Below are positions 33,295 through 33,545 of a stretch of 64,000 bases of DNA, in pieces (positions within the stretch are counted from its first letter, which is position 1; each line of letters begins with the position of its first letter). The position numbers were made by a program, and so were the translations under genes. The stretch is from Minisyncoccia bacterium (GTDB lineage: Bacteria; Patescibacteriota; Minisyncoccia; Phycocordibacterales; UBA9973), in contig JBAQFO010000009.1 of assembly GCA_049287305.1 (NCBI GenBank), forward strand, positions 108,558-172,557, in the 5' to 3' direction. The notes below the pieces were generated by a model, which did not search any database, was not told the DNA's origin, and saw only the letters and a program-made list of their open reading frames with translations.

Positions 33295-33384
33295 TGGCGG
33301 AGAGGGAGGGATTCGAACCCTCGGTCCTTTTAAGGGGACGACAGTTTAGTAAACTGTTGGTTTAAGCCACTCACCCACCTCTCC
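33295..33384 (-). tRNA. Type II (Ser-like) tRNA with noncanonical anticodon ACU (A34); encoded CCA
   Basis: Hand-folded: acceptor GGAGAGG/CCTCTCC, 3-bp D-stem GGT/ACC, anticodon stem ACAGT/ACTGT with loop TTACTAA (anticodon 34-36 is ACT), long variable arm GTCC..GGAC, T-arm GAGGG-TTCGAAT-CCCTC, discriminator G, CCA. Confidence 0.7.
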
Positions 33385-33454
33385 AAGGCTTGGGAGAGTA
33401 TACCAGAAAAATGGAAAAATGGCTGAAATATGTTAGAGTTATTAAGTTATTTAC

Positions 33455-33545
33455 GGAGCCGTGTCAGAGTGGTCTAACGTACCTCTTTGCTAAAGAGGCA
33501 GGGGCTTTATACCCCCTCGCGAGTTCGAATCTCGCCGGCTCCGCA
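33455..33545 (+). tRNA. tRNA-Ser (anticodon GCU), type II
   Basis: Acceptor GGAGCCG/CGGCTCC, anticodon stem CCTCT/AGAGG with loop TTGCTAA, long variable arm, T-arm GCGAG-TTCGAAT-CTCGC, discriminator G. Confidence 0.85.

Follow-up and report, generated by a model that had tools for sequence, protein, structure and literature searches.

The stretch analysed here, 64,000 nt of a Minisyncoccia genome and called the window below, carries on its minus strand a serine tRNA gene with the anticodon ACU, that is, with A at the wobble position 34. This tRNA-Ser(ACU) is a real gene; it occurs clade-wide in the Parcubacteria/Paceibacteria lineage of the candidate phyla radiation (CPR), bacteria of groundwater with ultra-small cells, and its structure is under selection. 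Minisyncoccia is the class that contains the former Parcubacteria/Paceibacteria. In kind the molecule is ordinary, a tRNA isoacceptor, and its anticodon belongs to a class thought absent from nature. We consider it probable (roughly 0.6) that the tRNA is expressed and charged with serine and that it serves as a dedicated Watson-Crick reader of AGU, with an A34 that is not converted to inosine.

Two class II tRNA genes lie head to head within 33295-33545. The elements of the locus are the following.

33295..33384, minus strand: tRNA-Ser(ACU), class II, with G73 and encoded CCA (ARAGORN and Rfam RF00005)
33348..33350, minus strand: anticodon ACU; A34 is the complement of T33350, read directly
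33385..33454: spacer of 70 nt, a putative compact bidirectional promoter region (from the alignment of 39 unique spacers)
33397..33405, minus strand: putative extended -10 element of the ACU tRNA, TGGTATACT, 12 nt upstream of G1
33431..33439, plus strand: putative extended -10 element of the GCU tRNA, TGTTAGAGT, 15 nt upstream of G1
33455..33544, plus strand: partner tRNA-Ser(GCU), class II, with G73, without encoded CCA and with a non-canonical D-stem (ARAGORN and Rfam)

ARAGORN called tRNA-Ser(act) at 33295-33384 on the minus strand and tRNA-Ser(gct) at 33455-33544 on the plus strand. The covariance model RF00005, with a gathering score of 29, gave 57.2 bits to the ACU tRNA and 44.8 bits to the GCU tRNA (E-values for the window 1e-09 and 2.6e-06, respectively). 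The match of the ACU tRNA covers the full-length model (1-71), and the model places its sequence UUACUAA in the consensus anticodon loop at the highest posterior probability. By direct reading the gene has the acceptor stem GGAGAGG/CCTCTCC, a 3-bp D-stem (GGT/ACC), the T-stem GAGGG/CCCTC, the long variable arm GTCC-CCTTAAAA-GGAC, the discriminator G73 and an encoded CCA. No other anticodon register is available, because a perfect 5-bp helix (ACAGT/ACTGT) closes the 7-nt loop TTACTAA. A paired long variable arm, a 3-bp D-stem and G73 are the marks of a bacterial class II tRNA-Ser, all three are present here, and the anticodon ACU is complementary to the serine codon AGU. The architecture thus points to a serine isoacceptor with a genomically encoded A34 as its wobble base. 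Most of this had been described in an earlier note made from the sequence alone: the Ser-type features are all read directly, and both ARAGORN, which that note had proposed to run, and the covariance model agree on ACU in the loop UUACUAA. An alternative fold with another anticodon, named there as a possible objection, finds no support in the covariance model, which indicates no alternative register. The note was also right that the ACU tRNA is no simple duplicate of its neighbour, which has the acceptor stem GGAGCCG and an overall identity of 62%. Its description of a Ser-type pair stands with one small correction, namely that the GCU tRNA lacks an encoded CCA and ends in ...G73-C-AAAA.

Relatives of the gene were collected by scanning metagenome contigs with a pattern that excluded the Bacteroidota variable arm and left position 34 free. 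This survey, also suggested in the earlier note, yielded 81 loci. A34 is present in 76 of them on a backbone of the window type, and G, C or U was never found on that backbone. The 76 contigs come from ∼45 datasets (groundwater, sediment, soil and mats) and have differing 3' flanks. The five G34 loci among the 81 have unrelated variable arms. The G34 loci L134 and L167 (numbers with L designate individual loci) were considered as a CPR sister state and rejected, as they look Bacteroidota-like instead. ARAGORN found tRNA-Ser(act) in 71 loci, the remaining A34 loci being cut at contig ends. The partner tRNA was present in every metagenome locus with adequate flank, and the two genes were divergent in 57 of the 60 loci containing both (median gap 90 nt). 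More diverged members (L174, L193, L201, L204) have kept the ACU tRNA despite a differing arrangement. In 26 loci the pair is flanked by RecG, at 60-86% amino-acid identity, with pilus genes on the opposite side; the GC content of the related loci ranges from 0.32 to 0.48. Homologues of RecG at 80-87% identity are very numerous, and their named sources include Candidatus Paceibacterota, Parcubacteria group bacterium GW2011_GWF1_40_6, Nomurabacteria and Pacebacteria. The tRNA pair is found in the public metagenome-assembled genomes (MAGs) GCA_001787205.1 and GCA_028718635.1 (672-kb contig) and in two ENA assemblies, and the public MAGs with the pair include ones named Paceibacterota/Parcubacteria and Pacebacteria. 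A34 is likewise present in loci L215-L217 and L220; in a Nomurabacteria MAG (L218) synteny is rearranged. The pair has therefore been present in public genomes for years.

The 40 distinct ACU sequences (the window and 39 from metagenomes, alignment A1) show 94% mean column identity, and 99.7% of the cloverleaf cells are paired. Columns 25-48, the anticodon arm, were set by the search pattern and are informative at position 34 only. The acceptor, T and variable stems were unconstrained by the pattern, and it is in these stems that six pairs have changed on both sides, for example pair 50:64, which occurs as A-U, C-G and U-A. The covariation score of the alignment was reached by none of 500 shuffles. 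G73 is invariant, and the variable stem remains paired through its sequence changes (GTCC/GGAC, GTTCC/GGAAC, GTCCGG/CTGGAC). Covarying helices among homologues thus accompany a score above the RF00005 gathering threshold.

Two conserved blocks were visible in the alignment of the 39 unique spacers. The block on the ACU side, GAGTATAnCA, has the reverse complement TGnTATACT, an extended -10 element; the motif A[GT]TATAnCA was found in 37 of the 39 spacers, mostly 10-16 nt upstream of the 5' end of the ACU tRNA. On the GCU side the block reads ATGGAAAAA-N-AATATGyTAGAGT and holds the extended -10 sequence TGyTAGAGT, and the motif TGnTA[GA]AGT occurs in all 39 spacers, in most of them at a distance of 12-25 nt upstream of the GCU tRNA. 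A separation of 31 nt between the two -10 hexamers is typical, an arrangement that would form a compact bidirectional promoter. A generic sigma-70 scan of the spacer made no call, and the elements emerged from the alignment. Their conservation and their resemblance to the consensus suggest that the blocks are promoters. Some spacers contain additional sequence. In L133, L139, L190, L195, L197 and L198 a copy of ∼17 nt of the 5' end of the ACU tRNA (...CTCACCCATCTCTCC) lies between promoter and gene, and in L141-L143, L172 and L182 a GC-rich palindromic insert (CCTGCC...GGCAGG) separates the two -10 elements. These copies and inserts may be recombination scars or small mobile inserts.

A pseudogene or recent mutant copy was considered and rejected in view of the 76 contigs and the named MAGs, the intact covarying structure and the conserved promoter element. 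The pseudo-tRNA proposed in the earlier note fails for the same reasons, clade-wide conservation, compensatory stem changes and the keeping of synteny and promoter elements. Its suggestion of a G34-to-A mutation is supported by the GCU-type backbone as a probable historical event, and does not hold for a recent mutant: the change is ancient, fixed and maintained.

The sequence of the ACU tRNA is 88% identical to tRNA-Ser(GCU) of Bacteroidota and 62% identical to both the GCU partner and the tRNA-Ser(GGA) of the window. Over the first 46 nt it differs from the Bacteroidota tRNA only at position 34 and at one base of the D-loop. A scan of a genome collection with the anticodon arm, N at position 34, gave at least 120 matches, and among the matches listed all were Bacteroidota tRNA-Ser(GCU) with G34; none of the 120 listed copies has A34, and no CPR genome was among them. 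Both tRNAs are class II with G73, an acceptor stem beginning GGAGAG, the same D-arm and, except for position 34, the same anticodon arm, whereas the Bacteroidota tRNA has G34 and different variable-arm and T-stem pairs. Its variable arms differ from the CPR type in that none listed has a pyrimidine after CTGTCGT. Unlike the Bacteroidota case, the CPR gene adjoins a second, unrelated tRNA-Ser(GCU), and no synteny was found between the ACU locus and Bacteroidota loci. The Bacteroidota-like backbone would reflect either horizontal transfer between phyla or unusually deep retention. On the simplest reading, two unrelated GCU-type serine tRNAs would have come to coexist, the redundant Bacteroidota-like copy would then have taken the G34-to-A change, and A34 would since have been held by selection; this order of events is drawn from the sequence comparison.

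The resemblance over the 5' 46 nt raises the possibility of an artefact: position 34 could have been misread in sequencing, or a Bacteroidota tRNA-Ser(GCU) fragment could have been joined into a CPR contig as a chimera. Logan assemblies could be taken to point the same way. Unitig-style contigs for the neighbouring genes end inside both tRNA genes and never cover the anticodon, as seen for L001 (window 33515-40079) and L122 (window 29392-33322) in the Logan assemblies of SRR28062879 and SRR28062869. Breaks of this kind fit k-mers common to the tRNAs of other organisms, and a chimera was considered for this reason. The breaks probably result from T-arm and anticodon-arm k-mers common to other community members, and unitig-style assemblies may systematically lack tRNAs of this kind. 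A second MAG, GCA_049303715.1, was assembled independently into different contigs, one of which breaks near 21 kb of the window. Its contig JBAQNI010000016.1 covers window 21045-35811 with zero mismatches over 14,767 nt, the ACU tRNA included. Two assemblies of different contig structure are thus identical, and the 76 contigs from ∼45 datasets have A34 within CPR-syntenic flanks. A chimera with a Bacteroidota tRNA was ruled out by the lack of A34 in any listed Bacteroidota copy and by the differing variable arms. An artefact is accordingly regarded as extremely improbable, and the sequence error that the earlier note had entertained is excluded by the second MAG and the metagenome contigs.

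The partner tRNA-Ser(GCU) is itself unusual. Rfam flags mismatches in its D-stem, and in the partner family (alignment A2) compensatory change was seen in 20 of 25 pairs while the D-stem was only 48% paired. Here U10·U25 occurs in 32 of 34 sequences, and A12·C23 in 20 of 34, alternating with A-U and U·G. The other helices covary strongly. A minority of loci (L128, L138, L204) have a different type of partner.

The meaning of the AGN codons was determined by aligning 16 window proteins to their E. coli K-12 orthologues and tabulating the E. coli residue for each window codon. The AGN codon check suggested in the earlier note gave the following counts.

AGA: 59 aligned positions; E. coli Arg at 37, Ser at 0
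AGG: 29 aligned positions; E. coli Arg at 13, Ser at 1
CGN codons: 25-54 aligned positions each; E. coli Arg at 54-77%, Ser at 0-2 each

The arginine figures of AGA and AGG are in the same range as those of the CGN codons. At AGU and AGC, E. coli has serine at 3 of 18 and 6 of 38 positions, respectively, and nothing suggests a meaning other than serine. ATA behaves as isoleucine (47 of 151 aligned positions). AGA and AGG are arginine codons and the genetic code is standard, so the ACU tRNA does not read AGR (AGA and AGG) to any large extent. AGA is the commonest arginine codon of the window, with 217 codons. A change of the code, with AGA and/or AGG read as serine by a superwobbling ACU tRNA as in invertebrate mitochondria, could draw on systems in which a whole four-codon box is read by an unmodified A34, Mycoplasma tRNA-Thr(AGU) being one (cited in PMC11066159). 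The counts above, in which both codons behave like CGN, make it hardly credible, and recoding of AGR to serine is ruled out for the dominant meaning by the orthologue alignment. In its gross form, the mis-decoding that the earlier note had listed falls with it.

In the reading that we prefer, the ACU and GCU tRNAs would be transcribed outward from the compact bidirectional promoter, each from its own extended -10 element, and both would be charged by seryl-tRNA synthetase via the long variable arm and G73. The ACU tRNA would keep a non-inosine A34 and pair with AGU by three Watson-Crick pairs. The GCU partner would read AGC and could also wobble on AGU, and AGA and AGG would remain arginine. 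The decoding logic given in the earlier note was correct in that A34 reads AGU and that inosine at position 34 (I34) would add AGC and AGA, as was its statement that A34 is rare outside tRNA-Arg(ACG). A non-inosine A34 is favoured by two considerations. Known bacterial sites of TadA all keep G36, with UACG/YUACGAA in E. coli and Klebsiella and UAMG in S. pyogenes (PMC11472039). The loop motif U33-A34-C/A35-G36 is broken in the ACU tRNA, which has U36 in UUACUAA; G36 being absent, conversion by TadA is disfavoured. Moreover, I34 in place of G34 would add only misreading of AGA, and there would be no reason to retain A.

Engineered tRNAs behave in a compatible way. An unmodified ACU anticodon on an orthogonal tRNA in E. 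coli gave 9.4% on AGU and 0.36% on AGG, with AGC and AGA below detection (PMC11066159). An engineered E. coli Ser-tRNA(ACU) was tolerated or beneficial, and the estimated risk of mistranslation was low (bioRxiv 10.64898/2026.05.15.725136). These constructs, of E. coli serV-type Ser and M. jannaschii orthogonal origin, have the same anticodon and work on a bacterial ribosome, where they are active and AGU-selective; they are artificial, whereas the CPR tRNA is natural, ancient and conserved. A natural tRNA with authentic A34 in a reduced-genome bacterium is known from Mycoplasma, whose tRNA-Thr(AGU) keeps A34 unmodified (as cited in PMC11066159; PMC3711424). That tRNA serves a four-fold box, in which reading of several codons is harmless. 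The ACU tRNA, in contrast, must discriminate between codons, because the AGN box is split with arginine.

The other possibility for position 34 is that a lineage-specific TadA, or a relaxed variant, produces I34. The resulting ICU anticodon would decode AGU and AGC, with a weak reading of AGA that is out-competed by tRNA-Arg(UCU). Six of the seven positions of UUACUAA agree with the extended TadA motif YUACGAA, and the range of TadA has widened elsewhere, tRNA-Leu(AAG) having become a substrate in S. pyogenes and Oenococcus (PMC11472039). The code test reports the dominant meaning of AGA only and is compatible with low-level misreading. The invariant G36 of the known bacterial targets speaks against this, as U36 stands in its place here. 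I34 would bring no gain over G34 on AGU and AGC, it would add misreading of the commonest arginine codon, and it leaves the keeping of A over G in 76 of 76 contigs unexplained. No TadA gene was found in the loci searched, a coverage too small to count. The tRNA-Arg(ACG)/TadA system, with tRNA-Leu(AAG) in Oenococcus and Streptococcus, resembles the present case in its genomic A34 and the loop YUAC-AA. It differs in its invariant G36; the ACU tRNA has U36, serine identity and a place in a split (2+2) box, where I34 would misread AGA. We therefore consider the ICU decoder rather unlikely. That A34 is enzymatically modified in any form, whether to inosine, by a TadA that is less strict about G36, or to an undescribed A34 derivative, we hold to be unlikely. 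If it were so, this would be the first wobble-modified tRNA with an ANN anticodon (A in the first position) from a split codon box, and the lineage would either have its own means of suppressing AGA misreading or tolerate a low level of Ser/Arg ambiguity, possibly a regulated one, at AGA, the commonest arginine codon of these organisms. The modification-dependent decoder, one of three explanations that the earlier note had offered, thus survives as a less likely one.

Several points weigh against a dedicated AGU reader with non-inosine A34. Its expression, its serylation, the modification state of A34 and the restriction to AGU are all deduced from the gene sequence. The advantage of such a reader is unexplained, since the GCU tRNA is already able to read AGU. 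AGU is not enriched: the fraction of AGY codons (AGU and AGC) ending in T is 0.42 in the window and 0.58 in the clade (109,000 codons, related loci), among the lowest of all NNY pairs in both. AGU enrichment was therefore rejected as a rationale for the ACU tRNA, and no benefit from codon demand is visible. A-to-I conversion has been inferred for a split-box Phe-tRNA(AAA) in E. coli (bioRxiv 10.64898/2026.05.15.725136), so that deamination of A34 is possible in split boxes. This conversion also counts in favour of the ICU decoder. The tblastn search with E. coli TadA, which found no TadA-like gene, covered the window, its extension and ∼90 related loci, together ∼0.7 Mb and a few kb per genome. 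Lastly, the metagenome pattern fixed the anticodon arm, and relatives with other arms, including possible G34 versions, would escape it.

The missing codon demand could also mean that the gene is a near-neutral passenger. A redundant GCU-type tRNA would have undergone G34A in the ancestor of the clade and become a harmless reader of AGU only. It would persist as changes to C34 or U34 are harmful and as its promoter region is common with an essential partner. The lack of AGU enrichment, the constant presence of a GCU tRNA nearby and the good tolerance of engineered Ser-tRNA(ACU) in E. coli agree with such a history. Purifying selection on the whole cloverleaf, visible in the compensatory pairs, and on its own putative promoter element is, however, unexpected for a dispensable gene in genomes this reduced. 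Reversion from A to G would be a single neutral transition, yet G is found in none of ∼39 distinct sequence lineages, and the gene persists where the arrangement has changed (L174, L193, L201). On balance a passenger appears unlikely.

A role outside decoding was also weighed. The tRNA might donate serine in a tRNA-dependent non-ribosomal reaction, or act as a back-up isoacceptor that resists cleavage, its A34 sparing it from an anticodon nuclease aimed at tRNA-Ser(GCU). A duplicate isoacceptor without visible codon-demand rationale would suit either version, and CPR bacteria are episymbionts exposed to the toxins of hosts and competitors. The pair is linked to neither a tRNA-dependent transferase gene nor a toxin gene, its neighbours being MscL, a DsbD-thioredoxin fusion, an ATP-grasp ligase, RecG and pilus genes, and the T-stem and acceptor resemble those of a normal elongator tRNA. 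Both the donor role and the back-up role are in our view quite improbable.

ANN anticodons in split codon boxes have been called universally missing, with the Ser/Arg box named explicitly (PMC8007984). Fifteen of the 16 ANN anticodons are absent from bacterial repertoires, which was called a deep mystery, and split-box ANN tRNAs had to be engineered in E. coli for study (bioRxiv 10.64898/2026.05.15.725136). No description of a natural bacterial tRNA-Ser(ACU) was found in open-access papers and bioRxiv; the only listing of such a tRNA that we found is a table entry for chlorovirus ATCV-1. The tRNA genes of 95 complete Patescibacteria genomes have been surveyed; the main text of that survey makes no mention of tRNA-Ser(ACU), and the text of its supplementary tables gives counts per amino acid only. 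A natural split-box ANN tRNA with invariant A34 across a large and diverse CPR clade contradicts the stated universal. It is found next to a GCU partner of the conventional kind, and the genomes concerned still use AGA and AGG as arginine codons. Neither the lineage-wide nature of the gene nor its conflict with this rule of tRNA repertoires was foreseen in the earlier note. The clade offers a natural system in which the avoidance of A34 in split boxes can be put to the test, with respect to the modification of A34, the prevention of AGA/AGG misreading and the benefit that retains the tRNA. Annotation pipelines may flag or discard such tRNA genes as errors.

A second unusual anticodon occurs in the same genomes. 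A tRNA-Ile(UAU) gene lies at 44411-44485 on the minus strand and is syntenic across the clade; it was also found in L130, L135, L139, L150, L169, L174, L195-L197, L215-L218 and L220. In the window ATA is nearly as common as ATT (615 and 663 codons, respectively), which suggests that AUA is read without lysidine in this clade. The situation is presumably that of bacteria lacking lysidine, such as Mycoplasma mobile, in which tRNA-Ile(UAU) reads AUA. Like ACU, UAU is a normally missing anticodon of an A-starting split box, and the two co-occur in the clade. It differs in box and amino acid, has U34 rather than A34 and has already been described in a few bacteria. The UAU anticodon is said to be generally lost in prokaryotes (PMC8007984). 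Together the two tRNAs add to the unusual decoding strategies of CPR bacteria.

The remainder of the window is ordinary bacterial chromosome. It encodes GyrB, PheST, LigA, TruB, a type IV pilus operon, MscL, a DsbD-thioredoxin fusion, RecG, a class II ribonucleotide reductase, FtsH, transfer-messenger RNA (tmRNA) with SmpB, IF3, L20 and the end of the spc operon. A phage or mobile origin of the locus finds no support, with no match in IMG/VR viral contigs and conserved chromosomal genes on both flanks. An exact-sequence look-up of the adjacent MscL matched no record. Close to the tRNA pair, at 30970-32199 on the minus strand, lies a gene for a 409-aa protein that has no Pfam match at default thresholds and is syntenic with the pair in ∼20 loci. 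Over the C-terminal 240 residues the protein resembles the ATP-grasp domains of cyanophycin synthetase and GshAB (PDB 7txv/7lg5, E ∼1e-22), and by this similarity it is classed as a stand-alone ATP-grasp ligase of the cyanophycin-synthetase/GshAB type. It was considered as a tRNA-linked enzyme and rejected, since a ligase of this type has no evident tRNA link.

The tmRNA gene (46822-47223, minus strand; Rfam 110.8 bits) neighbours smpB (47246-47692, minus strand) and was missed by ARAGORN in the window. ARAGORN did find its orthologue in L215-L217, with the tag AKLTSAQESPYFGM[IN]SFALAFA. The gene ends in ...CCACAA, so CCA is not encoded. At 49548-50912 (minus strand) a beta-CASP metallo-beta-lactamase RNase is encoded, whose best NCBIfam match is 'type VII CRISPR-associated Cas14' at 402 bits against a cut-off of 800 bits. 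It also matches archaeal aCPSF1, and no CRISPR context was seen. A UPF0176/rhodanese protein (8274-9290, minus strand; TrhO/YceA-type, tRNA U34 hydroxylase family) adjoins pheS-pheT and concerns wobble-uridine chemistry, not A34. Finally, the class II (B12-dependent) ribonucleotide reductase at 40638-43636 (minus strand) has an N-terminal ATP-cone and adjoins a cobalamin adenosyltransferase gene, and this pair is kept in relatives at 84-90% and 71-80% identity, respectively.

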